Shown here: positions 14,684 to 57,209 of the stretch, piece after piece
How positions within the stretch are numbered: the stretch's first letter is position 1
Layout of the letters: each line of letters starts with the position of its first letter
From: an uncultured bacterium
Lineage (GTDB): Bacteria; Macinerneyibacteriota; Macinerneyibacteria; Macinerneyibacteriales; CAYRFE01
Direction: 5' to 3'
Length of the DNA: 64,000 bases
NCBI GenBank assembly: GCA_964423645.1
Contig: CAYRFE010000010.1
Coordinates: forward strand, 21,264 to 85,263
The notes under the pieces: model-generated
Seen by the model: the letters and a program-made list of their open reading frames with translations, nothing else
Database searches by the model: none
Told to the model about the DNA's origin: nothing
Made by a program: the position numbers and the translations under genes

Positions 14684-14712
14684 ATATATAACTTTTATGG
14701 TATAATCAGCAC

Positions 14713-32965: not shown

Positions 32966-35524
32966 TCATTCGATACTCTCAATCACCAATTCTTGTATCC
33001 ACATCGGCATTTTCCCTTTTAGCTTTTTTAACTTGTCGGTTTTGGTTTCGACAGTTTCTCCTTCTTGCGGATATACCTGTTCGCGCCATGTTTCGTCAGT
33101 CAGTAATTCATTATGCATAAACTCATAATAACTGTATACATATCCCGCTCCGATTCGCTTTCCGCCATAAGGATCATTGAGCGCGACATATAGTTTCAAC
33201 GGTTTTCCTATCGCATTGAGTTGATAGGTATCTATTTTTGCTTCAGGATTTATCCACTTTGCAATATCGGTTACAAGCGCCATTCGCGGATCGTCAGTTC
33301 GTATACCAAGCTGCGCTGTTCCAATCAAATCAATCGTTTCCTGTAATGTTGATTTAACCTGTATAATTTTCTCCATTTCATTTACCAATGTATTGATGTA
33401 TTCATTTTCTTCAGCCGAAATTGGTTGCTGAAGAGCCTGTTTTTCTGCAATTATAGTGAGTGTATCAATGACTTTCGAATATCGTTCAAGCCCCACTTGT
33501 AGTTTCGCATCGAGCACTCCCACAATAGGAAACATTTCGTTGTAGCGGTTTAACAATATACGCATTCTGTAAAAAAATGGTAGATTAGGTTCAACATAAT
33601 TAATAACAGGATTTTTATATACATGAAATCCCATAGAACTGGCCAATTGTAAAGGGCGTCTGTATAACACGGTATCATGCATTCGTTGAGTCCACGCACT
33701 AAGCCCTGTCATGAGTGATTTTTTCTCCCAATTCTTACTCTGAGTGAAGTAAAAATCCGGACTGCTTCCAAATTCATACAACGTCGTTATGATGCCTAAA
33801 TAATTCATGTGAATATTCGATTGCCACTCGGATTCTGAATACCGACTACTAAGCGAGGTAAGTTGTGTATAATTACTCTCAAGCTGTGAAAAGGTTTTGA
33901 AATCCTTTTGGATCAACTCGCGACCAAAAGTATTCCCAAATACCGCAGACGTATCATACCCGTGCGGAATACGACGTTCATCGTGAGATTCTTCAAAAAC
34001 TGCGAGTTTTTCCAGTGCATATAAATCAAGATTATAGGTTTGCGGCACTATTTCAAAGAACTCTGCTCGCGAAATACCATCAGAAGAGTAATTACTTTTC
34101 AAGGATTCAATAAAGGCTGCTCTGACTTTGGCATCAAAGATAATATCTCTTCTGTTATCAATATTTTGAAGTAACTCATATGAATAAGCATTACTGTCTC
34201 CGAAAAAATTACGCATTGTAGCAATATACACACTGTATGTCTCCATCAAGTCGGTATTTCGCGAAAGAATCTCATAGAAAAGCACAAATAATGCTGCATC
34301 ATTAGGATACTTGTGTATATCCATCTCAAATCTTAAAGAACTTAACCAGGTAAATACTCGCCAATATTTTTGCAATTGTTCTGTTTCCCGATAATGTATA
34401 CGTGGAGAAAACCGCATGTACGCGATTTCTTTATCGATAATATCAGAGCTTTCAACCCCGGATTCACGTTTAATTTTTTGCAGTTCATTCCGGGCGTTTG
34501 TACTCATTGATTCTTCTTTCACTTGTTCACCGGATAACACAGCAGCAACAGTGAAAACATCATATAACGTATTAAAATAACGTTCATAAGCGGTATAATT
34601 CTTATTTTTTGAATAACTTTGTAAATCGTGATACATTCCACTTACAAATGAAAATAGAAGAGGGGCGAGTATTTTTCGCTCAACATCTATCTGTATCTTA
34701 TAATTCAAAGTACGGAATGTATGCATCAGCCAATCGGTCGTTACAAATATCGACACGGTGCTCCCTTTAGGCTCTACAATATCATAAAGACTTTTATATG
34801 CTTGAATCATATCATCATTATCTTTATATACCTCAAAATTTTCATCCACAATAGCAAATTTGTCACGAATGAGCCGTTGCTGCACGTCGTCAGGAATTCT
34901 TTTAAAACCAACATACGGCAAGAATGCTTTCGGACGATTTTTGTTTTTTGTATAATATTTATCCAATCCGGACTCATCCATCTTCAAAAACGTTACTTTT
35001 TCAGAGTTATACTTACTATTTGATTTAATTATGGTTTTTTTTACATCTACTATTTGATGTTTACCAATACTATTCAATGCCTTAACAATACGTTGAAGCT
35101 TTTCAGGCGAAACATAAGTCATCTCATCAATTAAATCTGTATTACTACCTTTTTTTTCATCCGAGCAAATAGTAGTCCATTGACTTTGAAGAGAATCAAA
35201 CATAGTTTCTGACATATTCGGATGTTTGTTGACTAATTTCTGGAGCCAAAATTTCGCCTGAATGTAATCTTTGTATTCTGCTTGATAAATATGGGAGAGC
35301 ATGCTCATTGCATTATAATAACCATAGGACATTTCAGCAATCTTTTTATAAATTTCAATTGCTTTATCAAATTCTTTATTATTGTAATAAATATATGCGA
35401 CTTGCTCTAAAGCGTCCTTATCCCCCTCATGCGCTTTTTTCTGTAAATCTGCAGGGATATCAATAGCACCGCATAGCGACTTCACAACACACACAAAAAA
35501 TATTATTAAAAGCACACGTTTCAT
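32966..35524 (-). CDS. Large secreted protein (852 aa): N-terminal Sel1/TPR-like region plus conserved C-terminal domain of unknown function
   Basis: Signal peptide; collinear paralog of 35634-38258; the C-terminal 84 aa are identical. Confidence 0.8.
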   Translation of the reverse strand: MKRVLLIIFFVCVVKSLCGAIDIPADLQKKAHEGDKDALEQVAYIYYNNKEFDKAIEIYKKIAEMSYGYYNAMSMLSHIYQAEYKDYIQAKFWLQKLVNKHPNMSETMFDSLQSQWTTICSDEKKGSNTDLIDEMTYVSPEKLQRIVKALNSIGKHQIVDVKKTIIKSNSKYNSEKVTFLKMDESGLDKYYTKNKNRPKAFLPYVGFKRIPDDVQQRLIRDKFAIVDENFEVYKDNDDMIQAYKSLYDIVEPKGSTVSIFVTTDWLMHTFRTLNYKIQIDVERKILAPLLFSFVSGMYHDLQSYSKNKNYTAYERYFNTLYDVFTVAAVLSGEQVKEESMSTNARNELQKIKRESGVESSDIIDKEIAYMRFSPRIHYRETEQLQKYWRVFTWLSSLRFEMDIHKYPNDAALFVLFYEILSRNTDLMETYSVYIATMRNFFGDSNAYSYELLQNIDNRRDIIFDAKVRAAFIESLKSNYSSDGISRAEFFEIVPQTYNLDLYALEKLAVFEESHDERRIPHGYDTSAVFGNTFGRELIQKDFKTFSQLESNYTQLTSLSSRYSESEWQSNIHMNYLGIITTLYEFGSSPDFYFTQSKNWEKKSLMTGLSAWTQRMHDTVLYRRPLQLASSMGFHVYKNPVINYVEPNLPFFYRMRILLNRYNEMFPIVGVLDAKLQVGLERYSKVIDTLTIIAEKQALQQPISAEENEYINTLVNEMEKIIQVKSTLQETIDLIGTAQLGIRTDDPRMALVTDIAKWINPEAKIDTYQLNAIGKPLKLYVALNDPYGGKRIGAGYVYSYYEFMHNELLTDETWREQVYPQEGETVETKTDKLKKLKGKMPMWIQELVIESIE
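33042..33295. repeat. 254-bp block identical to 35731-35984 (3' ends of the tandem paralogs)
   Basis: Base-by-base identical, against roughly 50-60% identity across the rest of the genes. Confidence 0.85.
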
Positions 35525-35633: not shown

Positions 35634-38258
35634 CTATTGCGGCCAAATAGGCATTTTCTCTTTTCCTTCAATCACCAATTCTTGCACCCACATCGGCATT
35701 TTCCCTTTTAGTTGTTTTGACTTGTCGGTCTTGGTTTCGACAGTTTCTCCTTCTTGCGGATATACCTGTTCGCGCCATGTTTCGTCAGTCAGTAATTCAT
35801 TATGCATAAACTCATAATAACTGTATACATATCCCGCTCCGATTCGCTTTCCGCCATAAGGATCATTGAGCGCGACATATAGTTTCAACGGTTTTCCTAT
35901 CGCATTGAGTTGATAGGTATCTATTTTTGCTTCAGGATTTATCCACTTTGCAATATCGGTTACAAGCGCCATTCGCGGATCGTCGGTGCGTATAGCCAAC
36001 TTTTCGGTGGCATATAGATCAATAACTTCCTGAAGAGAAGACTTTGCTTCAACAATTTGTTCCATTTCATACACCAACGAATTTATATACTCATTTTCTT
36101 CAGAGCTTATAGGTTGATTCAATGCCTCTTTATCTACAATCACTGATAAAATATCAATGACAGCCACATAGCGATTTAAGGCTTCCCGAAGCTTCTCATC
36201 GACGATGTCATGGGTGGATATAAAATCGGTATAACTTGCTAGAATTTGCTTCATGCGGTAAAAAAACATCAGATTTGGCTCTACATAATTAATAATAGGA
36301 TGCTTTGTTAATTCAAATGCTTGTCCCCAAGCTGTTGCAAAAGGTTCTCTGTACAAAACGGAATCATGCATACGCTGTGTCCATGCGCTTAAACCGGTCA
36401 TTAATGCTTTTTTCTCCCAATTCTTACTCCGGGTGAAATAAAAATTATCGTTGCTACCGAACGAATACAACTCCTTAAGCAACGAAAGATAGCGCATATG
36501 CAAATTCGATTGCCACTCGACTTCCGAATATCGACCGGCAAGTGTTGTTACTTTTGTATATTCGCCTTCAAGTAATGAAAAGTCCTTAAAGTCTTTTTGA
36601 ATCAATTCATTGCCAAAGGCATTGCCGAATATTGCGGCAGTATCATACCCGTGAGAAATACGATATTCCCGGCGAGATTCTTCCTTAACGCCAAATCGTT
36701 CGATCGCATACAGATCGATATTGTTGGTTTGAGGTAGTATTTCAAAGTACTCTGCAGCAGGCAACAACGGAGCATTTGCGCTTTTGGGCAATGCAGCAAT
36801 AAAATCAGCACGCGTATTCGCATCCGAAATGATGGCGTTCAAATCGGTGATTTTTTCAAGCGTTTGAAAAGAATATGCATCGCTGTTGCCGAAAAACAGC
36901 TGCACTGTTTTACAATACGCCGTGTACAGTTCTGTTGATTCCTTATTGCGGGACAGCACGGTATACAGCAATGCAAATTGCTGTATATCATCCGGATATT
37001 TATTCATATCAATGCTAAACCGTAAGCTGCTCAACCATGTAAAAACACGCCAATATGTGCTCAGTTGCTCTGTTTCTCTATAATGGATTCGCGGGATAAA
37101 TCGTGTATAATCTATTATTTTTCCCGTTACATAGGATTGACGATAGCTTTCTTTTCCGTCCCGAATGAGCGCGAGCTCTTTCTTCGCGTTTTGCGACAAA
37201 TTCTTTTCTGCCGAAGCATCTCCGCTCAATACTGCGGCAATCGAAAAGATGTCATACAGCACATTTGTATGGTCTTTAAACTGCAATCCCTCTTCCGTCG
37301 TGCGATACTCATCGATCTCCTTATACATTTTTCCCGTAAAAGAGATGAGCAAAGGAGCCAATGCTTTGCGCTCTACATCAACTTGAATCTTATAGTTTAT
37401 TGTTCGAAATGTATGCATCAGCCAATCGGTTGTCACAAATATTGACACAATACTCCCTTTAGGATCCCAACGTGGACATAAAGTTTTATACGCTTGAATC
37501 ATATCATCTTTTTTTTCAAACATATCAATGTCTTCATCAACAATAGCGAATCTGTCACGAATGAGACGTTGTTGCACATCATCAGGGATACGCTCAAGCC
37601 CGACATACGGTAAGAATACTTTAGGATGATTTTTATTGTTCTTATAATAGTCCTTCACCTGTGAGTCATCAATCTTCGCAAATACGACTTTTTCATTGTT
37701 TAACTTTTTATTCGGTTTATACACGGGTTGTTTAAGCGGATAAATCCGGGTTTCCTTTGTGTCATTCAATTCTGCACTCAGATGACGAATTTGCTCCGGA
37801 GTAACACTTGTGAGCGCGTTGATTATCTCGGTAGTGTTTATCCCTTTTTCATCTTTACGTATATCATTCCAAATTCCTGAGATTTCCTCATAAATAAAAT
37901 CCGGCAAGTTATTAGGATGTTTATTTACTAGTTTTTGGAGCCAATATTTAGCCTTAATGTAATTTTTGTATTCTATATGATTAATACGAGCAAGCATGAG
38001 CATAGCCATAAAAGAACCGTCCTGTAAGTCTGCGACCTTCTCATATACTTTAACAGCCTTATCGATTTCTTTGTTATTATAATATAGGTGTCCTATTTGT
38101 ATTAACGCTTGCCGATCCCCTTCATTTGCTTTTTTCTGCAATTCTGCAGGGATATCAACAGCGCTGCAAAACAGGTTTAAACACATGTAACAAAAAACCA
38201 TCATTATACAAACACTGCATTTCATACCCTCATCCTCCACTTTGATATCTATACTCAA
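35634..38258 (-). CDS. Large secreted protein (874 aa), tandem paralog of 32966-35524
   Basis: Shared blocks (RIPDDVQQRLIRD, VTTDWLMHTFR, IHYRETEQL, WRVFTWLSSLRF, identical C-terminus). Confidence 0.8.
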   Translation of the reverse strand: MSIDIKVEDEGMKCSVCIMMVFCYMCLNLFCSAVDIPAELQKKANEGDRQALIQIGHLYYNNKEIDKAVKVYEKVADLQDGSFMAMLMLARINHIEYKNYIKAKYWLQKLVNKHPNNLPDFIYEEISGIWNDIRKDEKGINTTEIINALTSVTPEQIRHLSAELNDTKETRIYPLKQPVYKPNKKLNNEKVVFAKIDDSQVKDYYKNNKNHPKVFLPYVGLERIPDDVQQRLIRDRFAIVDEDIDMFEKKDDMIQAYKTLCPRWDPKGSIVSIFVTTDWLMHTFRTINYKIQVDVERKALAPLLISFTGKMYKEIDEYRTTEEGLQFKDHTNVLYDIFSIAAVLSGDASAEKNLSQNAKKELALIRDGKESYRQSYVTGKIIDYTRFIPRIHYRETEQLSTYWRVFTWLSSLRFSIDMNKYPDDIQQFALLYTVLSRNKESTELYTAYCKTVQLFFGNSDAYSFQTLEKITDLNAIISDANTRADFIAALPKSANAPLLPAAEYFEILPQTNNIDLYAIERFGVKEESRREYRISHGYDTAAIFGNAFGNELIQKDFKDFSLLEGEYTKVTTLAGRYSEVEWQSNLHMRYLSLLKELYSFGSNDNFYFTRSKNWEKKALMTGLSAWTQRMHDSVLYREPFATAWGQAFELTKHPIINYVEPNLMFFYRMKQILASYTDFISTHDIVDEKLREALNRYVAVIDILSVIVDKEALNQPISSEENEYINSLVYEMEQIVEAKSSLQEVIDLYATEKLAIRTDDPRMALVTDIAKWINPEAKIDTYQLNAIGKPLKLYVALNDPYGGKRIGAGYVYSYYEFMHNELLTDETWREQVYPQEGETVETKTDKSKQLKGKMPMWVQELVIEGKEKMPIWPQ

Positions 38259-39616: not shown

Positions 39617-40174
39617 TTATTTCAAAAGGTGCGTAAATTCATTTACTTTCACATAAAACTGTTCAAACAAGGTAATATACGGCGTTACATCACCGTGCGA
39701 TCGAAAAGCATCACGCAACGAAGTAAAATACCACAGTTGTTCATTATACCCTCTTTTGAAACGACTCCAGACTTCATCGCCTAAGCGCGCATGTTCATCG
39801 ATTAACGAGGATATATTATCAAGTTTATCGGCACATTCGACCACTCGGACAGTAAGTGATTGTGTCGATATTTTATCAATAGTGTGTCGCTTCCGCGCTT
39901 CCCATGAAAGTGACTTATCACATTCCGAACACTGCCTCACGATATCTGCAATCTCATTTCCGAATTCAACACCCAGTTGTTCATAAGTTAGATCAGTATC
40001 TTCAAGTGTATCATGCAACAAACCGGCAGCAACAATAATATCTCCTGCTCCCGCTCGAGTTAATCGCATGGCAACGCTGACCGGATGGACCAAATACGGC
40101 ACATCCATACCTTTACGACGTTGTCCGTCGTGCGCCATGGCGGCAAAAAATAGGGCTTTTTCGACAATTGTCAT
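39617..40174 (-). CDS. Small HD-domain alarmone ((p)ppGpp) hydrolase-like protein (SAH/Mesh1-type)
   Basis: 185 aa; HD motif context LVHPVSVAMRL...AAGLLHDTLEDT resembles the RelA/SpoT hydrolase domain. Confidence 0.7.
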   Translation of the reverse strand: MTIVEKALFFAAMAHDGQRRKGMDVPYLVHPVSVAMRLTRAGAGDIIVAAGLLHDTLEDTDLTYEQLGVEFGNEIADIVRQCSECDKSLSWEARKRHTIDKISTQSLTVRVVECADKLDNISSLIDEHARLGDEVWSRFKRGYNEQLWYFTSLRDAFRSHGDVTPYITLFEQFYVKVNEFTHLLK

Positions 40175-40185: not shown

Positions 40186-41118
40186 TCATTTATCAATGAT
40201 AACTAAATTATTCATACGTGAAGATTCATAAATCGATTCTTCCAGAAGTTCCAATATATCGTCAATCGTTTTCATTTTCCGCACATACACCAAACCTTTG
40301 TCAAAACGAGCGGTAATTTCTTTGTCATGTAAAAACTTGCTCATTTCTTTTTCTATTCTATTGATAACGTCGATGATGGTCACCTCTTCAGGATTTTCCA
40401 AAATGACCATTAAACCGGTTCCTCCATGTAATGATATCGTATCAATGGCGCGAATATGTTTCTTTATTGTTTTGGCTAATCCTGCAACAGCAAGATCCAT
40501 CGTTGCCGACCCGTAACGTTTTTTCAATTCGATAAACTCATGATAGCGAGTATAAAAAACTGCAAAACATTGCTTGTGGCGACGTAACCGCTCAAGCACT
40601 TCCTGTAATTTGATATAGAAATAACTGGCACTGTATGCACCCGTTTCCTCATCATATACTGCCATATTATGTACCATCTCATCAAGGCTCATCGTTTTTA
40701 AAATAAATGCGGCAAGCATACTGATATTCTCGAAGAGCGTAAGGTCATCATCATGGAATTCACGTTCAGATGCCATTATTGAGAGACCAACAGTGACGTT
40801 TTTAACGGTCAATGGAAACAGATATACCGAACCGGGATTATTTTCCAACGGGTATTCGCTTCCTGCTCGCACACCTTCATGCGATTCAAAAGCTTTCGCG
40901 ATGCATTCATCAGTCAATGTCAACGTATTACTATTGATAAATGCCGCACTTACTCCACGTGCCATTTTTACACGGAAACGATCATGACTGAACACATATA
41001 ACACACATTGCTTTAAATGCAACTCTTTCATAAGCGCAGTCATCAGATTTGATAAAATTTCTTCATACGTTGACGCATGCGACACGTTTTTTAAAAATGC
41101 ATTATGTTTTTTTTGCAT
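40186..41118 (-). CDS. GAF-like domain plus degenerate GGDEF-like domain protein (predicted catalytically inactive)
   Basis: RYHEF where GG(D/E)EF is expected; start reassigned to Met 29 (41118), which has the RBS aaggagagggcATG. Confidence 0.6.
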   Translation of the reverse strand: MQKKHNAFLKNVSHASTYEEILSNLMTALMKELHLKQCVLYVFSHDRFRVKMARGVSAAFINSNTLTLTDECIAKAFESHEGVRAGSEYPLENNPGSVYLFPLTVKNVTVGLSIMASEREFHDDDLTLFENISMLAAFILKTMSLDEMVHNMAVYDEETGAYSASYFYIKLQEVLERLRRHKQCFAVFYTRYHEFIELKKRYGSATMDLAVAGLAKTIKKHIRAIDTISLHGGTGLMVILENPEEVTIIDVINRIEKEMSKFLHDKEITARFDKGLVYVRKMKTIDDILELLEESIYESSRMNNLVIIDK

Positions 41119-42787
41119 CGCCCTCTCCTTTATTTTGCTGCGTATGCAGCATCGTTTTCTTTTCGACATAAGAGCTCTGCACCACATAATCGGATCCCTC
41201 AAATTCTTTCACGACCGTCGATACATCATTCACCGCTGCAACAATTCGATCGAGCATCGCACGCTCTGAGGGGAATTTTCGCATCAATAATTCGATTGTA
41301 GCCAAGATCGTGGTAAGTGGCGAATTAATGCGATGATTAAGTGTTACCGAGAGATCATGCACAAGATGAAGTTTTTCTTTGACCACTTCTGATTCATCAG
41401 CACATAAGCGTAGATAGATCATGCCGGTATATGATAAAAAATCAACAATTTCTGCTAATTCTTCCTGAGAAACCATTCGCTTACTAAAGACGTTATCACC
41501 ATAAATGAATCCGCTGATTGTTCCGGGACCGGGTATAGGAAAAACATAATATGTGCTTGACCCGACTCTTTTTGTAAAACTTTGATGGAGTAAATTATCT
41601 TTTTCGGTATAAAACTCTTTATCGCCGAATGATTCCGGCATCGTAATAATCTGTTGAGAAAAAATATCAGGTTTGCAATCGGCAAGATACTCACGTAAAT
41701 GATACCCGTGAGTATTTTTATCAAAAAAGAATACTCTGTCAAAATGAAAATATGTAGTGAATGTCGTAAAAAAAGAAGTAAATGCTCGTGACGGATCACC
41801 ATATACTAAATCTTTTAAAAATTCATGCAAGAATTCCTGTTTATATAGACGTTTGTTAAGTGTGACGATGACATCTCGCGAGAATTCATGCTTTTCAGCG
41901 GCAAAAAATTTATGGATATTTTCAAAATCGTTGTAATATGATGTGTCAAGAGAATATGAATCCAAAAAATTCTTGATCTTCGGTAATACGCCGCCTATCA
42001 CCTCATCAAGAAGTGAAAGCGACATGAGCAATTCTTTCTCAGTGAAAATAAAAAAGTAGGGTAATTCTTCAATAATATGATTATGCAATACAGCCCATAC
42101 AAATTCTTCGCAAAAGGTCATTATCTTTCGATGCGAGGGATCTTCCGGAGAATGGAGATTACTACACGCTGCATCCACAAATGTTTGCGGTAAATGCCAT
42201 TTTTCAAGAATATATTTACTCAACGCAATGTGTGAAAAACCCAGTGACCGTATTTGTGACTCGAGAAACGTTTGAAGTGTTTCCGTATCTTTCTTGAGTA
42301 TATCGGAAAGTAGCTCATACTGAGTTTCATATAAAAACAAATACCCAATATGCCGTAACAACATTTGTGAAAACAGTATTCCTTGTATAGGAATGCCTTT
42401 TATCTGAGCAAGACGCTGGGTAAGTAACGCAGAGACAAACGAAAAAAGGAAAAAACGTTTTGTTTCTTCTTCCGGGACATTGGCAAATGATCGTGTGTGT
42501 TCATAAAATAAGACACATAACAACACCTCGCGTAATTTATCCAGCCCGAGTAGTGACACCGCATGTTGTATATCGGTAATTTTATGCGGTAAATAGTAAT
42601 AACCTGAATTTATTAAATTGAATACTTTTGCAGAGAGCATCGCATTCTGCTCCAACTCACTGCTTATCATTTTTATATCGGTTTCATCCGACATCAGTAT
42701 TTGAATGATTCGAATAACGATCGTCGATGGTAAATGATGATGATTCAGTAGAGTATCTATTGCCGAATAATCTATGCCTTGCGTCAT
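41102..42787 (-). CDS. HDOD-domain protein with a C-terminal HisKA-like dimerisation/phospho-acceptor segment and no ATPase domain
   Basis: N-terminal HDOD features; C-terminal [25 protein letters not shown] matches an H-box; the protein ends about 60 aa later. Confidence 0.65.
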
Positions 42788-43431
42788 ATCTTTAAGTACT
42801 TTCTTACCTTAACCTGCAAAAATAAAGGAAGAAGCGAGAGGGATCGGCTCACGACATTTTTATATCCCCTGATCGAATTATCGATCATATATACTAAGAG
42901 CACGTATTTTTCACTTACCTCCGCGGCGATCCAAAAATCTTTCACCAAAAACATATTGGATAAATCCGTTAAATACGTGATTAAGAAATCATGCGCGATC
43001 GCTCTGTTTCCTGAATTGGGATCCTTTTTAGCCGCATGTATCAGTGCTTTCAGTGCCATTTCTCGACGCTCGAACAAAACATACATTGCTTGGCGACGAA
43101 CCAGATAATTTCCGGAATACATCACCAGATTCACAATTTCTTCTGCAGGCATACGGCGAACAAGCGGATCAATAATATGAAAAAAGAAATATTTCTTTTT
43201 CGGTTTGGGCGTTATTTGCTTCACGGCCATATCCGGTTTCACTCGATAATCTATCGGCGTTCTGCAAACACTTGAATACGCATCTTGAATGTGTTTGAAT
43301 TTTTCAATATCTCCACCGGGATTATCGGGATGATACCGTTTTACAAGCGCACGATAGGCTCGTTTAATCTCTTCTTTGTGCGCATTTTTTGAAACACCCA
43401 GCACTTCATACCATACTTCGACATCGTTCAT
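42784..43431 (-). CDS. J-domain co-chaperone (DnaJ-like N-terminal domain only)
   Basis: [30 protein letters not shown] with an HPD motif; no Gly/Phe, Zn-finger or C-terminal DnaJ domains; ATGA overlap with the Hsp70 gene. Confidence 0.8.
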
Positions 43432-45143
43432 TCGTTGTGGCCCTCCGTAATAATACGTGCGGTTTCTATAAGTTCACGCAACACGGTGATATCTCTGTCT
43501 GCAATATGCCGATCAATATCTTGTATTAAATGCACTACATCTTCATGCTCGCTGTCGTGAGCTAATGTGGCATACTCATTTAACGCATCGATCATTGTGT
43601 GAGCAGTCGCAATAATTGACTCTTCTTTCTCATGAATCATCTCATCTTGTCGTTCGCTCTCTTCAATAATCGCTTGAACTTCTTCATCGGAAAGCGAACT
43701 CATGTTTTGAATTTCAAGTTCTTTCTTTACACCTGAGTGCATGTCCGCTGCTGATACGGACAATACACCGTTTTGATCCATACTGAACGTCACTTCAATA
43801 TCGGGTTCGCCCTTTTTCATGGCTTGGATATCCGTCAGCTCAAAACTCCCTAAAAAATGATTGTCTTTTACATTCGATGATTCACCTTGGAAAACCTTCA
43901 CTTCAACAATCTTCTGATAATCCGAAACAGTTGTAAAGTTCTGCATACGCGAGACCGGTATCGGCGTATTTCGTGTAATTAACGGCGCAAAAACACCTTT
44001 ATCTATTTCAATCCCTAAAGAAAAAGGAGTCACATCAACCAAAATCATATTCTCGCCAATTTCCCGCGTCACCACACCCTGTATAATCCCCGCCTGAATT
44101 GCCGCACCCATGGCAACACATTCATCGGGATTAATATTTTTATACGGTTTAGTATCGGAAAGGTCCTGCAGTTTTTTTTCTACGATAGGAATTCGCGTTG
44201 ATCCGCCAACCAATATCATCTTTGATAATTCACTGACTTTTACCTGTGCATCATCCAAAACACGATAAAACGGTTCATCAAGTTGATCAATATAATCATG
44301 TATCAAATCTTCGAATTGTGCACGAGTAAGCCGCATTTCTAAATGCCGAGGTCCAAGTTCATCGGCAGTAATAAACGGAATACTTATCGCAGTATGCTTC
44401 GCCTCAGACAATTCGACCTTCGCCTTCACCGATTGTTCATAAATACGCTGTAATGCCATACGATCGGTTGAAAGATCGATACCGGTTTCATTTAAAAAAG
44501 CCGACAATATATAATCTGCAATTCGAGTGTCAAAATCATCTCCCCCAAGCTTATTGTTTCCCGACGATGCAAGAACTTCAAAAACATTGTCTCCTACATC
44601 AAGGAGAGACACGTCATACGTCCCACCACCCAAATCCATGATGATTATACGCTCTCCGTCGGTTTGATTATTCGCTCCGTACGCCAGCGCTGCTGCAGTC
44701 GGTTCGTTAATGATACGTAATACGTTCAAACCTGCAATTTTAGCTGCCTGCATTGTCGCCGATCGTTGATTGTCATTAAAATATGCGGGGACTGTTATAA
44801 CGGCATCAGTGACACTGTCACCTAAAAAAACCTCTGCATCATCTTTCATTTTTCGCAATATAATTCCCGAAACTTCTTCGGGGGAATACTCAATGGAGTC
44901 AATTTTTATTTTTTCTTTTGTTCCCATCAAACGCTTTACGGATACTATTGTCCGTTCAGGACTTATAACCGCTTGATTTTTCGCACTTTGACCTACCAGA
45001 ATTTCCTTGTCTTTTGTCACTGCAACACAGGAAGGAGTAAGTCGCTCTCCTCTGTTATTGGGAATAATTTCCGGTTTGCCATCTTTTAAATATGCCATTA
45101 CCGAATTTGTGGTTCCCAGATCAATACCTATAGTAATACCCAT
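43428..45143 (-). CDS. Hsp70-family ATPase, short HscC-like form
   Basis: [20 protein letters not shown], Hsp70 substrate-binding beta domain; 571 aa with a truncated C-terminal lid. Confidence 0.88.
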
Positions 45144-45157: not shown

Positions 45158-45988
45158 TCAATCAAATAATAATTCACCATTTTTATGTGCGCTATCGGCT
45201 TCAGCAGTAATTGTCTCGATATCTGCGCCGGTCAATCCCAATGTACGTGCAGATTCCAGTTGCGTAAAATCGTGTGCTGTTTGATATAAACCAAATCCCA
45301 AATGATATGCCAACGCATCAGCGACATTGATATACACAGCCAAAGGGCTTTCGGCAGCTGCCGTCATATCATGATGAAAGCGAATACCATCTATAAGTGC
45401 ATCGCTGAATTTCCATTTTATTGCAATCTCCCGACCAATATCTGCATGAGTATATCCAAGAATCCGCAGTTCAGGATCCACAAAAGATTTTTTCATATCA
45501 TATACATCGGTAAGCACCAATTCATATTCCTTTTGAAACATTTGATACATAAATGTCTTTCCAAGATCATGTAACAATCCCGCGACAAAGGCTTCTTCAG
45601 GCACAGGATATTTTCGTATTTTCGCAATAGACCTCGCAACAAATGCAACAAATTGTGCGTGTTCCCATAGTTTTTTTGACACAAGAGACTTTGAATCAAA
45701 ATACATGTTTTTCGTTGAATATGCAACGACAAGATTGCGAACGGTGGATAAACCCAAAACAACCACCGCATCCCGCACGGTTGTGATTCGTCGTATTGTT
45801 GAGTAATATGCCGAGTTGGCCGTTTTCAAAAGTGCAGACGTCAACGCTTCATCCCGATATACGGCATCTTGAATCTCGCGTGCAGTAACATTTTCGTCAT
45901 GCAACAAATCGATGACTTGTCGAGCAACATGCGGCATGACAGCCAATTCTTGCAATCTATCCAGTACACCTTCCGGGACGTTATTCAT
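45158..45988 (-). CDS. HDOD-domain signalling protein
   Basis: 276 aa with the conserved HDLGK region. Confidence 0.8.
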   Translation of the reverse strand: MNNVPEGVLDRLQELAVMPHVARQVIDLLHDENVTAREIQDAVYRDEALTSALLKTANSAYYSTIRRITTVRDAVVVLGLSTVRNLVVAYSTKNMYFDSKSLVSKKLWEHAQFVAFVARSIAKIRKYPVPEEAFVAGLLHDLGKTFMYQMFQKEYELVLTDVYDMKKSFVDPELRILGYTHADIGREIAIKWKFSDALIDGIRFHHDMTAAAESPLAVYINVADALAYHLGFGLYQTAHDFTQLESARTLGLTGADIETITAEADSAHKNGELLFD

Positions 45989-46674
45989 ATCTCTCCTTCA
46001 ATTTTCATGATCGGTATAACAATTGACTGAACACATCCGGATGCTTCATGTTCTATACGATACACCCCCGCATGTTTTTCCGCCGTTCGTTTACAAAATG
46101 CCAACCCTAGATATATTGCACCTGTATAGTCGTGTGAAAAAGGATCGGGTACAATTTCAGGCACACGATACGAATCATCAACTTCACTGATCACTCGCAC
46201 CGTAAACATTTCGTCTTTAGCGGTCGTATACACACGAATAGTTCCTTTTTGTGTAATTGCGCAGGCATAGGTGATCATTTCAACAAGAGCTGATACCAAC
46301 TGATCTTTATCACAGCGGAGCATGGTTTCATGTGCAGTATCCTCGATAGTAATTTTTGATAACGGATGTATTGTCTGCCAACAATCTCTCAGCGCAACAA
46401 TATCTTCAACAATCGAACGCACGTCACAATCGTCCCACGTGTATTCGCGCCCTGTTTTTTCACGTACCGAACGAATATACGCACTCATTTCTTCAACGAC
46501 ATGGGCCATTTTCTTTTTCATTTCATCATTACCCTCGATGAATGTGGCATAATTGATCAAAAGAAAAAGGTAATTATTCAATTTGTGGGTCATTGCACTG
46601 ACTACTTCTCCGACAGATGTATTCCGTTGAAGATTAATAAATCGTTCGACCGATGATTGCTCATAAGTATTCAC
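45985..46674 (-). CDS. Minimal cytoplasmic histidine-kinase-like protein (DHp + CA core, no sensor or TM)
   Basis: H-box THKLNN; HATPase-like C-terminus with weak G-boxes; 229 aa; 5 nt downstream of cheA. Confidence 0.6.
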   Translation of the reverse strand: MNTYEQSSVERFINLQRNTSVGEVVSAMTHKLNNYLFLLINYATFIEGNDEMKKKMAHVVEEMSAYIRSVREKTGREYTWDDCDVRSIVEDIVALRDCWQTIHPLSKITIEDTAHETMLRCDKDQLVSALVEMITYACAITQKGTIRVYTTAKDEMFTVRVISEVDDSYRVPEIVPDPFSHDYTGAIYLGLAFCKRTAEKHAGVYRIEHEASGCVQSIVIPIMKIEGEI

Positions 46675-46679: not shown

Positions 46680-48830
46680 TTACACTCCTGCGATTTCTTT
46701 TTTCACCATTCCTGCCATACCACTTACATCAATAATAAGAGAAACGCGCCCGTCACCTAATGTGCTCGCGCCTGAGATTCCGGGAATATTACCTAAATAT
46801 TCACTTAATGATTTAATGACTATTTCTTCTCTTCCTAAAAGTTCATCCACGAGCAAACCTAATTTTCGTCCGCCGACGGATACGATTACTACATAATACT
46901 CTTTTTTATTAACATCATAATTGGGGACATCAAATACTTCCGATAAACGTAACAATGGAAGAACCACGTCGCGCAAATTGAGCACTTCTTTATTATTAAT
47001 GGTTCGTATTTCGGAGAAAGTAACCTTGCTTGTTTCAATAACTGATGTTATCGGCACCGAGTATATTTCATCAGATACCGATACCAATAATGCCGTAACG
47101 ATCGCAAGTGTCAGCGGTAAGCGAACTTTCATTTTTGTCCCTTTACCAAGTTCGGTTGTAATCTCAATCATACCGTTCAGTTTTTGCACATTCGAACGTA
47201 CCACATCCATACCCACACCGCGTCCCGATGTATTGCTGACCAACTCAACCGTTGAAAAACCGGGGAGGAATATAATATTCAAAATTTCATTTTCACTCAT
47301 ATTTCTCAACGATGTTTCGTCAACAATACCTTTTTCTATCGCTTTGCGTGCAATTTTTTTGGTATCAATACCGCGTCCGTCATCTTCAACCTCAATGACA
47401 ATATTGTCACCTTCCTGATATGCCGAAAGATAGATCGTTCCGACCGCAGGCTTTCCCATTCTTTTACGCTCTTCCGGTGTCTCAATCCCGTGGTCAACGG
47501 AGTTACGAAGAATATGAACTAAAGGATCCCCTATATACTCCACGATCGATTTATCCAATTCTGTCTCTTCCCCAGAAATGATCAAATCAATTTCTTTGTT
47601 TTTTTCTCGTGCAAGAGTGCGAATCATACGCGGATATTTGTTGAACACTTTTCCAATAGGCAAAAGACGAGTTTTCATAACCGCCATCTGCAATTCAGAT
47701 GTCACAAAATTAATATTCGCAGTATTGTCGTTCAATTGTTCAATAAATTCATTATCCTTTGTCGACGATAATATACCCGAGATTCGCAAAAGTCTGTTCT
47801 TTGCCTGCACCAACTCTCCCACAAGATTCATCAGTTGATCCAGTCGCTTCACATCGACACGTATCGTCTGTTCAACGCCTCGCTCTTTCACTAAGGCACT
47901 CGCATTTTTCTGCTCAACGGGAATATCATCTTTGTTCTTATCAGACGAGGTTTGCTCATGCTTGTGCGCTTCACCGGTAAGTTGAGCCAATTTGATCATG
48001 ATCGATTTTGTCTCGACTTGCGGTTGTTTTCCCTCTTTTAGATCTTTGTTGATTAATTGCAATTTATCGATTCCCTCAAGCATACCGTCAACAAGTTCTC
48101 GCTCGAGCGTAAATACTCCATCTCGAATTTTATTAAGAATATCTTCAATTTTATGTGCAACTTCAGCCATTTGATTCACACCAATAAAACCTGCAGATCC
48201 CTTCACCGTATGTATTTTACGATAAAAATCATTCAAAATTTCTTTGTTATCCTTATGTTTCTCCCAATTCACCAACTCTTGACTCAAAAAATCAAGATTT
48301 TCTTCCGCCTCAATGACAAATTCTTGCAACACCTCGCGAAGCACTTCGTCTTTAAAATATCCGGGTTGTGCATCATCCTCGGCATCCTCATCGATATGTT
48401 CGTCTTTGATTTTCACATCGGGTACTTGGACGACACTGTCTTCACTCGCCTTCTCAAGTCGTTGGATCAATTGTTGTATATCCACAGATTCCGGGTCACC
48501 TTTGCTGATTTGTTCAAGTAATTGCTTCATATTATCCATTACGACAAATAACATATCAACAATTTCAGGTGTTGCTTCCATTTCATTTTTACGCAATTTA
48601 TTGAGCACATCCTCGGCATGATGCGTGAGTTTGGTTAAGACATCAAATCCTAAAAATGATGCCGAACCCTTAATAGTATGCGCCGAACGAAATATACTAT
48701 TAAGTAAATCAAGATTTTGCGTGTCCTTCTCAAGCTCAAGAAGGTCTTTTTCCATTTGATCTAACAGTTCATTCGATTCTATAATAAAATCCTGAATGAT
48801 ATTATCCATGTCATCTGAACGGGGTGTCAT
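46680..48830 (-). CDS. cheA: Chemotaxis histidine kinase CheA with two tandem HPt (P1) domains
   Basis: HTIKGSASFLGF and HTVKGSAGFIGV phospho-acceptor motifs; dimerisation, HATPase (DDGRGID, GRGVGMDVV) and CheW-like domains. Confidence 0.92.
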   Translation of the reverse strand: MTPRSDDMDNIIQDFIIESNELLDQMEKDLLELEKDTQNLDLLNSIFRSAHTIKGSASFLGFDVLTKLTHHAEDVLNKLRKNEMEATPEIVDMLFVVMDNMKQLLEQISKGDPESVDIQQLIQRLEKASEDSVVQVPDVKIKDEHIDEDAEDDAQPGYFKDEVLREVLQEFVIEAEENLDFLSQELVNWEKHKDNKEILNDFYRKIHTVKGSAGFIGVNQMAEVAHKIEDILNKIRDGVFTLERELVDGMLEGIDKLQLINKDLKEGKQPQVETKSIMIKLAQLTGEAHKHEQTSSDKNKDDIPVEQKNASALVKERGVEQTIRVDVKRLDQLMNLVGELVQAKNRLLRISGILSSTKDNEFIEQLNDNTANINFVTSELQMAVMKTRLLPIGKVFNKYPRMIRTLAREKNKEIDLIISGEETELDKSIVEYIGDPLVHILRNSVDHGIETPEERKRMGKPAVGTIYLSAYQEGDNIVIEVEDDGRGIDTKKIARKAIEKGIVDETSLRNMSENEILNIIFLPGFSTVELVSNTSGRGVGMDVVRSNVQKLNGMIEITTELGKGTKMKVRLPLTLAIVTALLVSVSDEIYSVPITSVIETSKVTFSEIRTINNKEVLNLRDVVLPLLRLSEVFDVPNYDVNKKEYYVVIVSVGGRKLGLLVDELLGREEIVIKSLSEYLGNIPGISGASTLGDGRVSLIIDVSGMAGMVKKEIAGV

Positions 48831-48843: not shown

Positions 48844-49425
48844 TTATTTTAGCGCAAAAGCTAAATCTTTCGACAACAACGGGACCGCTTTCTTATGCAT
48901 TTGCAATCGAATCCTTTGAGTCACTTTTTTTGCTCCTAAACTTCCATAAGAAAGCACAGGATACGCGAATATCCGTTCGTTTGATTCTACATGCTCATCA
49001 TGCGTCGTATAGACGGTCATATAGATAACATAATGAGCAACAAGATCACCCTTCTCCGCGACAAAAGGAATCGACGTTTTTTTGTCTTTTACAATATCAG
49101 TTTCACGCAGAGATACGGTTATCACGCGGTCATACCCTTTTCGCCCGTATGATGCCATTTCATGCACAATTCTTGCAGCATCAAATGCACCTCTATCATA
49201 GTGAGTATACTCCATCTGATGCGCTGAATCAAGTGAATTTTCAATGGTCATCTGCCACAGCTCATTCGTATAAGGATACCGATCCCAACCGTCGCCTAGT
49301 ATAATCATCACTCGTTCAGCTTTGAGCAACCCAATCATTGAAAATACCCCAATACACAACATGATACATTTTCGCACCGGATTTAACAGATCCGATACGT
49401 GTGATCTTTGACTCCGTCTTTTCAT
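48844..49425 (-). CDS. Hypothetical secreted or membrane-anchored protein
   Basis: N-terminal hydrophobic segment; tightly packed in the operon. Confidence 0.5.
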   Translation of the reverse strand: MKRRSQRSHVSDLLNPVRKCIMLCIGVFSMIGLLKAERVMIILGDGWDRYPYTNELWQMTIENSLDSAHQMEYTHYDRGAFDAARIVHEMASYGRKGYDRVITVSLRETDIVKDKKTSIPFVAEKGDLVAHYVIYMTVYTTHDEHVESNERIFAYPVLSYGSLGAKKVTQRIRLQMHKKAVPLLSKDLAFALK

Positions 49426-49730
49426 GAGTGCCCCCGCGCTTTCTTGTTTAAACGGTATAAAAACGCATATATTTCTGCGACCACGACAAAGGCATTCTCC
49501 GGTATTTCATGCTCAACTTCGATCGTATCCAGCAGTGAAACAAGATCTTTATCCTCAACAAGGGGAATATGATGCTCTTTGGCAATAGAGATGATCGCTT
49601 CCGCGATATGACCCCAGCCTTTTGCTGACACTTTCGGCGCATGTGCAGTATCCGCGTCATACGTAAGAGCGACTGCCTTTTTGATCAAATCACGCCCTTT
49701 CATACTACGACGTCTATGCCTTCTTCGCAC
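49422..49730 (-). CDS. FlhB C-terminal-domain-only protein (EscU/YscU/FlhB family, YlqH-like)
   Basis: VALTYDADTAHAPKVSAKGWGHIAEAIISIAKEHHIPLVED...VVAEIYAFLYRL parallels the B. subtilis YlqH / FlhB cytoplasmic domain. Confidence 0.8.
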   Translation of the reverse strand: MRRRHRRRSMKGRDLIKKAVALTYDADTAHAPKVSAKGWGHIAEAIISIAKEHHIPLVEDKDLVSLLDTIEVEHEIPENAFVVVAEIYAFLYRLNKKARGHS

Positions 49731-50551
49731 TGAAACGCGAGCATTAAAATAGGATCATGCAATATTCCCGAATGCTTCACCGTTAATGATGCAACCGAAA
49801 TACCTTTTTCATGCAATGCAGTACGCAATTCTCGGAATGCCCCCTGAATGATACGTGCTGAATCTTCCGTCGCAGTATACATATGAATACCTATTGTTGA
49901 GTGCCATTGACGAACGACGGCAAGAATCGTTCCAAGAGATGATAACTCAGCCATTATACGGTACTCTTCCATTCCGGTCGAGTTTTTCGGTGTATACGAA
50001 AAATAGCCGTCTCGCAATAATTCATTCTCCACATAGGGAAATGCCATAAAAAACATCCCTTTTTCACCATATTCTTGTGAAATGATCTTATCAAATTGTG
50101 CATGACGCAATATATCATCTGCTTCTTTTTCATTCGTAAGCAACGGGGAAACCGGTATTTTTGATAATTCCGATTGTTCCTGTAAAAATTCTTTGGTTAA
50201 TTCGGTATCCGGTGATTTAATCACAATCCCGGGCAACCGTATCTGAAGAAAGGTCTTGAAAAAAGCGGCGAGCTTGGGTTCTGCTGACTCGAAAAGCTTG
50301 GGTAAAACCTTTTCCATGTTCACCAGTTCCAAAACCGGCAGTGGCGAAAGTGATTTTACTCGTACAAATATACCTTCCTTATCCTGTAATATCATTTCAG
50401 ACGCCGCAGTTAAAACCGAGCCTTGTATTTTAATCGAAAAAAGATTATTCCCGAGCTGCTCCTGTACCACGGCATGGTATAAGCCGCCTTTAATAAAAAC
50501 AGGAAGCGGTTTCCCCTGCTGCAGGTGTAGTTGGATCGTATCAACGCGCAT
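49700..50551 (-). CDS. Hypothetical protein in the flagellar operon
   Basis: 283 aa; no motif recognised; co-directional and overlaps its neighbours. Confidence 0.5.
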   Translation of the reverse strand: MRVDTIQLHLQQGKPLPVFIKGGLYHAVVQEQLGNNLFSIKIQGSVLTAASEMILQDKEGIFVRVKSLSPLPVLELVNMEKVLPKLFESAEPKLAAFFKTFLQIRLPGIVIKSPDTELTKEFLQEQSELSKIPVSPLLTNEKEADDILRHAQFDKIISQEYGEKGMFFMAFPYVENELLRDGYFSYTPKNSTGMEEYRIMAELSSLGTILAVVRQWHSTIGIHMYTATEDSARIIQGAFRELRTALHEKGISVASLTVKHSGILHDPILMLAFQCEEGIDVVV

Positions 50552-51224
50552 CTCTTGCCTTCAACGCCTTAAGTTTTATAATAAAATCGACCTCACCCGG
50601 TGAAATATTAAAACGACGACTGAGAGTGATCTTATCTGTTCCGTTCACAAACAAACCATACACCGCGTCATAGTCCAAGGTTTGGGAGTCTGTGCTTTTT
50701 TTCTGCATCTCGATACAAGTATTGATGTTTTTTACACCATTACCGGCTTTTAACACCAAGTCACCGATGCCTGCAGCTTCAGGTGCTTTTTCTAAATACT
50801 TCCCGACCTCATCTATTAAATCTTTCATGACAATCTGTAATTTTTGTATCTCCTCACGACTGCCTTTTCGAATCCTACGTTCTCGCGAGAGAAAAAGTAC
50901 GATTATAATAATGATCAATATTAAAAACACACCATAAAATATCATCTCACGTTCACGTATACGAAGCGGAGAGTTTTTAATGGAATCAAGCTCCTGACGC
51001 TCTTCAAGTAACCGCTGTTGTTCAATTTCAAGCTCTCTTAACAATCGCTCATATCGAACTTTTTCCGTCTCTTCCGTTTTTTGAGCAAAGACGGGTGCAC
51101 TTGCAGTTGTGAAAAAAAGAATGAAAAGACTAACCCTTAATATCAATTTCGCTCCCCTTTGAGTCGGTGTACTCAACATGTTTGTTTTTTGTATATACCG
51201 CGCAAAAATATTCTTTCTTCCCAT
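50541..51224 (-). CDS. Membrane protein with signal peptide, coiled coil and TM helix (likely start Met 51179)
   Basis: MLSTPTQRGAKLILRVSLFILFFTTASAPVFAQ; EKVRYERLLRELEIEQQRLLEERQEL; IFYGVFLILIIIIIVLFL. Confidence 0.5.
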   Translation of the reverse strand: MGRKNIFARYIQKTNMLSTPTQRGAKLILRVSLFILFFTTASAPVFAQKTEETEKVRYERLLRELEIEQQRLLEERQELDSIKNSPLRIREREMIFYGVFLILIIIIIVLFLSRERRIRKGSREEIQKLQIVMKDLIDEVGKYLEKAPEAAGIGDLVLKAGNGVKNINTCIEMQKKSTDSQTLDYDAVYGLFVNGTDKITLSRRFNISPGEVDFIIKLKALKARDAR

Positions 51225-51462
51225 TTTTTTCCCGCCTCCGCCTTCTATGTCGCCTACTTTCGTCGCGATCCTCCCCGTGTAATTCGACTATATCTTCCTG
51301 TTGTACTTCGTGAACTTTTTCTATTTTTTCCCGCTGCTCTGTTTTATCGGCATCCCGCACATGTCCTTGTTGCGCGAACGCAGCTTCTTTATTGACACTC
51401 TGCACCTTTTCAACCGAATCACTCCCAGTGATATTAATGCGCACATCATTAATTTTCATCAT
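51130..51462 (-). CDS. Candidate FlgM-like anti-sigma-28 factor (110 aa) immediately downstream of fliA
   Basis: Start codon abuts the fliA stop; begins MMKINDV like Firmicute FlgM (MKIN...); hydrophilic and probably disordered; the C-terminus overlaps the next ORF by about 50 nt. Confidence 0.4.
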   Translation of the reverse strand: MMKINDVRINITGSDSVEKVQSVNKEAAFAQQGHVRDADKTEQREKIEKVHEVQQEDIVELHGEDRDESRRHRRRRREKNGKKEYFCAVYTKNKHVEYTDSKGSEIDIKG

Positions 51463-52209
51463 TTATACCAATGTTTTTAACACCCGCCGCAATCGATGAA
51501 GTGCTGATGCCCGAATTTGTGATACACGTGATTCACTGACACTTAATACGGCACCAATCTCTTTCAAATTGAGTTTCTCATAGTAATAGAGAATAATCAC
51601 AAGCTTTTCCGTTTCAGGTAATGAAGAAACAGAGTCCTTCAGTGCCTCGAATATTTCTTCGATCTCTAATTTTTCTTGCGCCGAGGGATTATTTTTATCT
51701 TCAATGATTGATATGAAAGAATCATGATCAAAAGTCAATTCCGTGTCATATGACAACACCGCCAATGAGTCCAATTGACCTATCACTGCATAATATTCAT
51801 CGACTGTCATATCGGCTTCTTGTGCTATATCTTCCGGTTGCGGTTCGGTTTTCAACCGAACTCTCAGTACGTCTATCGCATGATTGATAATTTTCTCTTT
51901 AGCCCGAAGCGTACGTGAAACCGCGTCATGTTGACGTAAGTAATCCCAAATCGAACCTTTAATGCGTCGATATGCAAACGTGATGAACTCAACACCTTTC
52001 GTGGGGTCAAAATTATCAACCGCTTCGATAAGTCCGACACACCCGACACTCACGAGTTCATGTCGATCGATGCCGTCAAACGACGCAACAGCCATACTGC
52101 CGACAATTTTTTTCACTAAAGTAAGATAATACTCAATAATTTTCGATCTGACCGATTCCGTCTTATTGAGTCGAAAATCTTCCCACAGCGCGAACTCATC
52201 CTTCAACAT
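51463..52209 (-). CDS. fliA: Flagellar sigma factor FliA (sigma-28)
   Basis: Sigma-70 regions 2 and 4 in sigma-28 arrangement; context after flhF-flhG. Confidence 0.88.
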   Translation of the reverse strand: MLKDEFALWEDFRLNKTESVRSKIIEYYLTLVKKIVGSMAVASFDGIDRHELVSVGCVGLIEAVDNFDPTKGVEFITFAYRRIKGSIWDYLRQHDAVSRTLRAKEKIINHAIDVLRVRLKTEPQPEDIAQEADMTVDEYYAVIGQLDSLAVLSYDTELTFDHDSFISIIEDKNNPSAQEKLEIEEIFEALKDSVSSLPETEKLVIILYYYEKLNLKEIGAVLSVSESRVSQIRASALHRLRRVLKTLV

Positions 52210-52483
52210 TCAGGTTGTCTCCTTTATCATTCTCACTGTTCCGTCTTTTGGTCGAATGTAATACATCGCGCAACCGTTTATGTTCCATTTCATTCACAAT
52301 GACGGTCTCCAATATTTTTCCAAGTGCAGAAAAAAAGAAAAAAATGACCGCGGCTCCGGCAGCGATATACCAAAAATCCGCTTTTTTACCGTACAATAAA
52401 AATGCCGCGGCAAATGCCGCAATACCGGCAACCACAACCACTCCATGATGCAATATGACGAGAGAATCATCGTGGGTCATCAC
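52196..52483 (-). CDS. Small two-TM membrane protein
   Basis: 95 aa with two hydrophobic helices; overlaps both neighbours. Confidence 0.45.
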   Translation of the reverse strand: MMTHDDSLVILHHGVVVVAGIAAFAAAFLLYGKKADFWYIAAGAAVIFFFFSALGKILETVIVNEMEHKRLRDVLHSTKRRNSENDKGDNLNVEG

Positions 52484-53945: not shown

Positions 53946-53947
53946 AC

Positions 53948-57174: not shown

Positions 57175-57180
57175 ACCGCC

Positions 57181-57209
57181 ATTATACAATTTTTACGTTT
57201 AAAAGTCAA
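57181..57209 (-). promoter_or_regulatory. Perfect sigma70 consensus promoter TTGACT-N17-TATAAT abutting the flhA start
   Basis: Minus strand reads GTTGACTtttaaacgtaaaaattgTATAATggcggtATG; only 6 nt separate the -10 from the ATG. Confidence 0.6.

Follow-up and report, generated by a model that had tools for sequence, protein, structure and literature searches.

A chaperone pair in a flagellar gene run

We analysed a 64,000-nucleotide stretch of contig CAYRFE010000010.1 (GCA_964423645.1) from an uncultured bacterium of the Macinerneyibacteriota (hereafter the window), in which genes for an Hsp70 and for a J-domain protein (J-protein) lie back to back. The pair sits downstream of flhA-flhF-flhG-fliA on the same strand, within one tightly packed, co-directional run that reads flhA, fliA, cheA, HDOD, Hsp70-J, HDOD, GGDEF, HD_4. 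Since pairs of this distinctive subtype sit in flagellar gene clusters of spirochaetes and of at least one other bacterial group, we conclude that this one probably has its role in motility rather than in general folding of proteins. The genes concerned are the following, beginning with the pair (aa, amino acids).

43428-45143, minus strand: specialised DnaK-type Hsp70, 571 aa; Pfam HSP70 4.7e-186; nucleotide-binding domain (NBD), linker MILVDVTP, beta-sandwich and shortened lid
42784-43431, minus strand: class C J-protein, 215 aa; J domain, disordered basic linker of ~30 aa and predicted all-helical HEAT/ARM-like C-terminal domain (~89-213)
45158-45988, minus strand: HDOD/HD-domain protein, 276 aa; Pfam HDOD 5e-55, HD 4e-11; separated by a 14-bp gap from the Hsp70 gene, upstream of it
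45985-46674, minus strand: mini histidine-kinase-like protein, 229 aa; H-box-like helix; HATPase_c 4.3e-4, under the Pfam cut-off
46680-48830, minus strand: CheA, 716 aa; two Hpt stretches, dimerisation domain, HATPase_c and CheW-like domains by Pfam
41102-42787, minus strand: protein with HDOD, a central region and HisKA/DHp, 561 aa; Pfam HDOD 5.5e-29, HisKA 5.1e-5 (under cut-off)
40186-41118, minus strand: GAF and degenerate GGDEF protein, 310 aa (public gene call, L001); Pfam GGDEF 4.6e-13, GAF_3 2.3e-5
39617-40174, minus strand: HD_4 protein (RelA/SpoT-type HD hydrolase-like), 185 aa, the last co-directional gene; Pfam HD_4 1.1e-14
49422-57189, minus strand: upstream flagellar block in the same direction, from open reading frames (ORFs) and public gene calls with Pfam, made up of the ten genes below
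55117-57189, minus strand: flhA
53948-55120, minus strand: flhF
53100-53945, minus strand: flhG
52480-53103, minus strand: PilZ protein
52196-52480, minus strand: FlgV-like protein with two transmembrane (TM) helices
51463-52209, minus strand: fliA
51130-51459, minus strand: small protein after fliA
50541-51224, minus strand: TM and helix-turn-helix (TM+HTH) protein
49700-50551, minus strand: FliK-like protein
49422-49730, minus strand: FlhB-C-like protein

ORFs and sequence agree with a first-pass annotation of this DNA in giving a 571-aa Hsp70 and a 215-aa J-protein that overlap by ATGA, the TGA stop of the first sharing these letters with the ATG of the second (sequence context GGCCACAACGAATGAACGATG; for the same junction also CACAACGAATGAACGATG). 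The J-protein stop and the ATG of the 561-aa HDOD/HisKA gene likewise overlap as ATGA, and the mini-kinase-like gene overlaps the 276-aa HDOD gene by 4 bp. The annotation had also placed HDOD proteins on both sides of the pair, which Pfam bears out (45158-45988 and 41102-42787), and had described the pair as co-directional with flhA…fliA, all of which do lie on the minus strand. Its distance of 2.4 kb downstream of cheA needs correcting, the Hsp70 start being 1.5 kb from the cheA stop and 3.7 kb from the cheA start. It had reported no grpE, and we found no GrpE, second Hsp70, type-I DnaJ or FapA among the larger ORFs scanned in the window. A search of the window for a sigma-28 promoter pattern found none, and consensus scans for sigma-70 promoters and terminators revealed no clear internal boundaries and no convincing internal terminator. 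The 276-aa HDOD/HD gene keeps its position in L003/L004, a relative at 77% identity, where hutH stands in place of the HD_4 gene; since it is absent from that relative, the HD_4 gene probably lies outside the conserved unit.

The Hsp70 is DnaK-type and carries a subfamily signature

Pfam HSP70 covers residues 5-556 of the protein, and its closest solved structures are Gram-positive-type DnaKs (G. kaustophilus DnaK, 2v7y, 3e-153). On the DnaK equivalog model TIGR02350 (prok_dnaK) it reaches 660.8 bits against a cut-off of 822.55, while three canonical DnaKs score 955-975 and the other flagellar-linked Hsp70s 678-758. It also stays below the cut-off of the HscA model TIGR01991 (494.2 against 708.55 bits), and no isc genes are present. 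The first-pass annotation had called the protein HscC-like. In a distance-based neighbour-joining (NJ) tree with weak deep support (47 sequences, 600 columns, 100 bootstraps), it is placed among the DnaK-type sequences with HscA as the outgroup, while E. coli HscC, to which it is 35% identical, pairs with the second Hsp70 of Synergistetes loci, apart from the window clade. On this grouping we rejected the HscC-type assignment: judged by its sequence, the window Hsp70 is DnaK-type and belongs to neither the HscC nor the HscA clade.

The full NBD and beta-sandwich described in the first-pass annotation are present, and its truncated lid holds in part. The protein aligns with E. coli DnaK to about residue 600, ends in IITEGHNE and retains most of the helical lid; its shortness comes from a missing Gram-negative NBD insert of ~24 aa, nine missing residues of lid helix B and a missing C-terminal tail of ~35 aa. 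A DAEF/DADY-type acidic tail motif occurs in the canonical-type sequences of our set and in no cluster-linked Hsp70, the window protein included. All catalytic residues (D8, K70, E171, D194, T199 and D201) are kept, as are the J-interface residues R167, N170 and T173 and the aspartate D393 of the MILVDVTP linker, and because these are intact the enzyme looks active.

Seven positions (30, 31, 56, 404, 429, 467 and 469, E. coli numbering) make up a signature that reads AER[YLM]AR[VI] in canonical sequences, NRNDVKE in the window clade, KRNE[IV]K[ED] in spirochaetal cluster-linked Hsp70s and SRNEIKE or NRNEIKE in the non-spirochaetal cluster-linked group. The common form, xRN[DE][IV]K[ED], is confined to the window clade, the cluster-linked Hsp70s and three short-contig relatives (carriers besides the window: L012, L016, L018, L019, L102, P0008, P0009, P0011, P0005, P0010 and P0013). 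None of the ~100 canonical-type sequences has it, and none combines [DE]404, [IV]429, K467 and [ED]469. Positions 404 and 429, which make up the hydrophobic arch above the bound substrate, change from M to D/E and from A to I/V, so that the arch is remodelled in the subfamily; the latch loop, with the latch arginine at 467, changes from APRGV to A/M-K-K-G-E. Alterations of the arch change the specificity of DnaK. Around the nucleotide cleft, A30/E31 become x-R and R56 becomes N, with E267 replaced by V in the window clade as well. Going by sequence, the pair belongs to a recognisable and so far unnamed Hsp70 subfamily, defined here by the signature, the lack of the NBD insert and the lack of the tail. 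Genes of this subfamily pass one NCBI DnaK model and carry the name 'DnaK' (a relative is publicly labelled 'molecular chaperone DnaK'), so that annotation hides the subfamily.

The J partner lacks the client-binding domains of DnaJ

The J-protein matches Pfam DnaJ at residues 7-53 only (2.4e-15; HPD at 34-36), in line with the N-terminal J domain and non-DnaJ C-terminal region of the first-pass annotation. Pfam and NCBIfam find no glycine/phenylalanine (G/F) region, zinc finger or DnaJ C-terminal domain in it, and the DnaJ model TIGR02349 gives 55.7 bits against a cut-off of 377. With an HPD-bearing J domain and neither G/F region nor zinc finger, it is by sequence a class C (type III) J-protein.

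Full-length matches are confined to four protein clusters (68-100% identity) among 5.8 billion proteins, within which conservation is as high over the C-terminal 140 residues as over the J domain. Each of the Hsp70s most like that of the window is followed by a J-protein of 255-299 aa, and the spirochaetal partners carry HEAT_2 repeats. The window J-protein and those partners have the motif S-x-N-x-[YF]-[VL]-R in common, and BLASTP aligns the window protein colinearly with the L099 partner up to residue 180. Profile-profile comparison of the C-terminal domains alone links the window to the L099/L100 partners (E = 4e-4 over 118 columns) and the L099/L100 group to the spirochaetal J+HEAT group (E = 5e-8). 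An AlphaFold2 (AF2) model built from 15 sequences has eight short helices, with a predicted local distance difference test score (pLDDT) of 67 and values of 74-88 across residues 90-150; an earlier model from four sequences (pLDDT 58) was too poor and was not used. Searched against 1.84 billion representatives, the family profile gave 133 matches at E<=1e-30. The best 150 matches listed include some 30 more proteins of 260-310 aa that match in a single stretch and cover most or all of the profile, and the remainder are mostly giant HEAT-repeat proteins matched on their C-terminal half. With moderate confidence, we read the C-terminal region as a shortened, degenerate HEAT/ARM-like solenoid, presumed to be a client- or site-binding module.

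Related pairs recur in flagellar clusters of distant lineages

Relatives close to the window (Hsp70 identity of 77-100%) have exactly its gene order from flhA through the GGDEF gene and differ beyond it, and HDOD flanking of the pair is confined to them. Distant lineages, found through either the J partner or the Hsp70, have Hsp70s of ~50% and J-proteins of ~20-25% identity. L012, L016, L018 and L102 share the order flhA-flhF-flhG-(FlgV-like)-fliA-fapA-(TM+HTH)-Hsp70-J, of which the short contig L019 shows fapA-TM+HTH-Hsp70-J, and in L101 a run of the L012 type leads directly into cheW-cheR-cheC-cheD-cheA-cheY-cheB. L099 and L100 read fapA-(motA-motB)-Hsp70-J-flgF-flgG-flgA-flgH-flgI-flgJ-flgN-flgK… and are not spirochaetes, since they have FlgH/FlgI ring genes and proteins with type IX secretion system tails. 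With L099 and L100 taken as two, nine of the 11 sampled lineages have the pair in a flagellar cluster. When genome contigs were scanned with a profile of the J+HEAT alignment, generic J-domain matches dominated, with one true locus, L019, among the matches listed. The first-pass annotation had proposed a module dedicated to a chemotaxis or flagellar component; the specialised, motility-tied part of that proposal is supported, the same pair type being found in distant flagellar clusters, and the HDOD link is weakened, its conservation ending with the close relatives.

Some neighbours in these loci are recorded here in their own right. L018 has an HDOD/HD gene (12454-13323, minus strand) on the opposite strand two genes from the pair, 27% identical to the 276-aa HDOD protein of the window (E = 8e-29). 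In L012, L016 and L017, the last of which has no flagellar genes, the gene directly after that for the J+HEAT protein is of the Sua5/YciO/YrdC family. The L017 Hsp70 (8310-10004), with a J+HEAT partner, is very divergent (30% identical to that of the window) and may be ATPase-impaired, as it carries E171D, T199S and D201S.

Comparison with known Hsp70 systems

The motility (flgB) superoperon of Borrelia burgdorferi comprises 31 genes, from bb0294 to bb0264, including flhA-flhF-flhG-flgV (bb0268)-fapA (bb0267), and bb0268 is co-transcribed with bb0272-bb0264 (10.1101/2024.01.09.574855). Its last gene, bb0264 (dnaK-1), encodes an Hsp70 paralog and thus resembles the window Hsp70 in standing at the tail of such a run and being co-transcribed with flagellar genes. 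It differs in its much shorter product (491 aa), in being followed by lepB-3 on the opposite strand, and so having no J partner, and in having no cheA or HDOD neighbours. Transposon mutants of bb0264 are viable and show reduced infectivity in mice (PMC3485029). The FlgV paper describes sigma-28, FapA, YjfB and the TM+HTH protein as a conserved sub-module and mentions no Hsp70 or J-protein in its text (10.1101/2024.01.09.574855). The first-pass annotation had regarded the arrangement as undescribed. The listing of bb0264 in the superoperon qualifies this; we found no functional study of that gene, and targeted literature searches found no description of a flagellar Hsp70/J pair and no FapA-DnaK links.

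E. coli HscC, which works with its own J-protein DjlC (YbeW/YbeV), is likewise a specialised short Hsp70 without a C-terminal tail, with a non-DnaJ-like J-protein and no adjacent grpE. It belongs to a different Hsp70 clade, however, and DjlC is encoded divergently, has 483 aa and an unrelated C-terminal part, and shows no flagellar link, so we draw on this system as a functional analogy only. HscA/HscB of Fe-S cluster assembly differs in its operon context as well as in the TIGR01991 score and tree position given above. By its proposed role, the window pair resembles StkA of Myxococcus xanthus, an Hsp70-like regulator of the motility-linked Dif chemosensory/exopolysaccharide (EPS) pathway (PMC4319316). 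StkA and SglK are Hsp70 homologs engaged in such a pathway and not in bulk folding, but they act in type IV pilus and EPS regulation, not on flagella. The nearest sequences and structures are those of the housekeeping DnaK/DnaJ/GrpE system, with the same domain plan and catalytic residues. From this system the window pair differs by its TIGR02350 score, its altered arch, latch and cleft, its missing tail and class C partner, the lack of a nearby grpE and its location in a flagellar cluster.

A probable client-dedicated machine and its alternatives

We consider it fairly likely that the pair is a client-dedicated Hsp70 machine of the flagellar-cluster subfamily and not the housekeeping DnaK/DnaJ, with a flagellar assembly or regulatory component as its most likely client. 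A typical housekeeping DnaK is disfavoured because of the TIGR02350 shortfall, the missing tail, the partner without DnaJ domains and the lack of grpE in the 64 kb. A flagellar client is suggested because the linkage outlasts deep divergence and changing flanks, usually with the pair right after fliA-fapA-(TM+HTH). FapA, FlhF/FlhG and the TM+HTH/FlgV sub-module are obvious candidates. More tentatively, the pair could be an ancient flagellar accessory, present from spirochaetes to a lineage resembling the FCB group (Fibrobacteres-Chlorobi-Bacteroidetes), that remodels FapA, the FlhF/FlhG landmark or TM+HTH/FlgV and is wired here to CheA and to cyclic di-GMP (c-di-GMP)/HDOD signalling.

The anatomy of the genes, the subfamily signature, the class of the partner and the recurring flagellar linkage are shown by the data; the identity of the client, GrpE independence and any regulatory wiring are inferred from these observations, and the cycle we envisage is as follows. 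The solenoid of the J-protein would bind one particular client or scaffold, its HPD-bearing J domain would then trigger ATP hydrolysis by the Hsp70, and the Hsp70 would clamp a client segment so as to hold, remodel or release it, with nucleotide exchange probably occurring by itself or through the GrpE of the cell. In the window lineage the pair would be co-transcribed and translationally coupled with cheA, the two HDOD genes, the split-kinase-like pair and the degenerate GGDEF gene, which may add lineage-specific c-di-GMP or phosphorelay input.

Several points weigh against our favoured reading. Its functional part rests on sequence and genomic context. The window Hsp70 marginally passes a second DnaK model, NF001413 (PRK00290), with 668.6 bits against a cut-off of 648 (canonical controls, 997-1068), and no canonical dnaK-grpE-dnaJ was demonstrated elsewhere, the scan covering the 64-kb window only. 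The NJ tree joins the window clade to the other cluster-linked Hsp70s with weak bootstrap support (31-46%), and we base their common origin mainly on shared derived residues, partner and genomic location. In the J-protein, Pfam detects no HEAT repeat in the C-terminal domain even at E up to 10, in profile comparison that domain matches the spirochaetal J+HEAT group marginally (E = 6e-3), and the AF2 model is moderately confident. Two lineages have a related pair outside flagellar clusters, beside glycosyltransferases in L017 and, with canonical Hsp70 arch and latch, beside Hsp20 and HtrA in L006-L011, and the window lacks fapA, a near-universal neighbour of the pair elsewhere. That bb0264 is an ortholog is suggested by synteny only. 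The idea of GrpE-independent cycling is tentative and comes from the changes at R56 and E267, residues of the salt bridges that slow nucleotide release and make DnaK dependent on GrpE.

Could the chaperone instead be reserved for the signalling proteins encoded next to it (both HDOD proteins, the split kinase or the degenerate GGDEF protein), setting their folding, oligomeric state or activity, a reading close to that of the first-pass annotation? The Hsp70, J and HDOD/DHp genes are tightly packed and ATGA-coupled, the order mini-kinase-HDOD-Hsp70-J-HDOD/DHp-GGDEF is kept at 77% Hsp70 identity where the downstream border changes, and the L018 HDOD/HD gene stands two genes from its pair. We nevertheless regard this as unlikely. 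HDOD flanking is seen in none of the eight flagellar-linked loci outside the close clade (L012, L016, L018, L019 and L099-L102), the Hsp70 signature and J-partner type are older than the HDOD association, and the window's J-protein variant occurs in just the four clusters described. With HDOD flanking limited to close relatives, the evidence favours a client in the flagellum or in motility over one among the HDOD proteins. The genes for the HDOD, kinase and GGDEF proteins seem to have been added in this lineage only, and coupling of the chaperone to their products is possible, its support lying within the close clade. Another proposal, that an HscC/DjlC-type system sequesters or remodels sigma-28 (FliA) or its anti-sigma factor, draws on the precedents of HscC with sigma70 and DnaK with sigma32, and on the position of the pair downstream of fliA in the window, L012, L016, L018, L101 and L102. 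It is very unlikely in our estimation. The Hsp70 does not group with HscC and is only 35% identical to it, and sigma-28 alone is an unlikely client, given that fliA is missing within 10 kb in L099/L100 and that Borrelia, which has no sigma-28, keeps bb0264 in the syntenic position.

It is likewise improbable, in our view, that the pair is the organism's housekeeping DnaK/DnaJ, or a redundant stress copy, standing by chance at the end of a motility operon. The NF001413 pass, the public name of the relative, the intact catalytic residues, the absence of a demonstrated canonical set and the Hsp20 and HtrA stress genes in L006-L011 would all fit such a role. They are set against a TIGR02350 score that misses the cut-off by 160 bits where canonical DnaKs pass by >130, an altered arch and latch with no tail, a partner without every client-binding domain of DnaJ, and a flagellar linkage that recurs even though the Hsp70s are ~50% and the J-proteins ~20-25% identical. 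In addition, the syntenic dnaK-1 of B. burgdorferi, whose genome also carries a housekeeping dnaK (BB0518), can be disrupted.

Client-dedicated Hsp70 systems of bacteria are few (HscA/HscB and HscC/DjlC), and a third, tied to flagella across phyla, would, if true, be a new flagellar player. This would bear on spirochaetes, whose flagellar control is poorly understood and among which B. burgdorferi lacks sigma-28. The altered arch and the putative solenoid partner would provide handles for client trapping, and the bb0264 transposon mutants already exist.

Other observations

A defence-system reading of the window was dropped, PADLOC having found none. The protein encoded at 40186-41118 has GGTGL at its active site (SLHGGTGLMV replaces GGDEF), with an I-site-like RAID motif five residues upstream, which suggests a c-di-GMP-binding receptor rather than a cyclase. 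Taken together, the products of 41102-42787 and of 45985-46674, a gene two places upstream of that for the Hsp70, resemble a split histidine kinase. The first, of 561 aa, ends in a HisKA/DHp region and has no catalytic ATPase domain; the second, of 229 aa, combines an H-box-like helix with a weak HATPase_c. The Pfam matches concerned (HisKA and HATPase_c) both lie under the curated cut-offs. The 229-aa protein also has weak NCBIfam histidine kinase matches and a 51% identical ortholog in L003.

Two small proteins of the flagellar block have no Pfam match. One, of 94 aa with two TM helices and a polar tail (52196-52480, minus strand), lies between the PilZ gene and fliA and fits the published position and architecture of FlgV; the other, an acidic/basic protein of 109 aa that starts MKIN… (51130-51459, minus strand), is encoded directly after fliA and is a candidate for an anti-sigma (FlgM-like) factor or a YjfB-like protein. 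The cheA gene stands alone, with cheW, cheY, cheB and cheR not adjoining, and two genes for methyl-accepting chemotaxis proteins lie far from it, at 450-2534 and 2855-4522.

Among other genomes, the second Hsp70 of the Synergistetes loci L033, L037 and L039 (~13450-15040), which groups with E. coli HscC, has ~520 aa and lies ~4 kb downstream of dnaK-dnaJ. In loci of Burkholderiales, Oxalobacteraceae among them (L044, L055, L058, L063, L067, L068, L075, L079, L083 and L090; ~200-4300), an HDOD gene lies ~6-9 kb from a canonical dnaJ on the opposite strand, which probably reflects synteny at the family level rather than a functional link. The window itself also contains tandem large DUF3160 paralogs of 852 and 874 aa (32966-35524 and 35634-38258, both minus strand), the second with an N-terminal TPR region.

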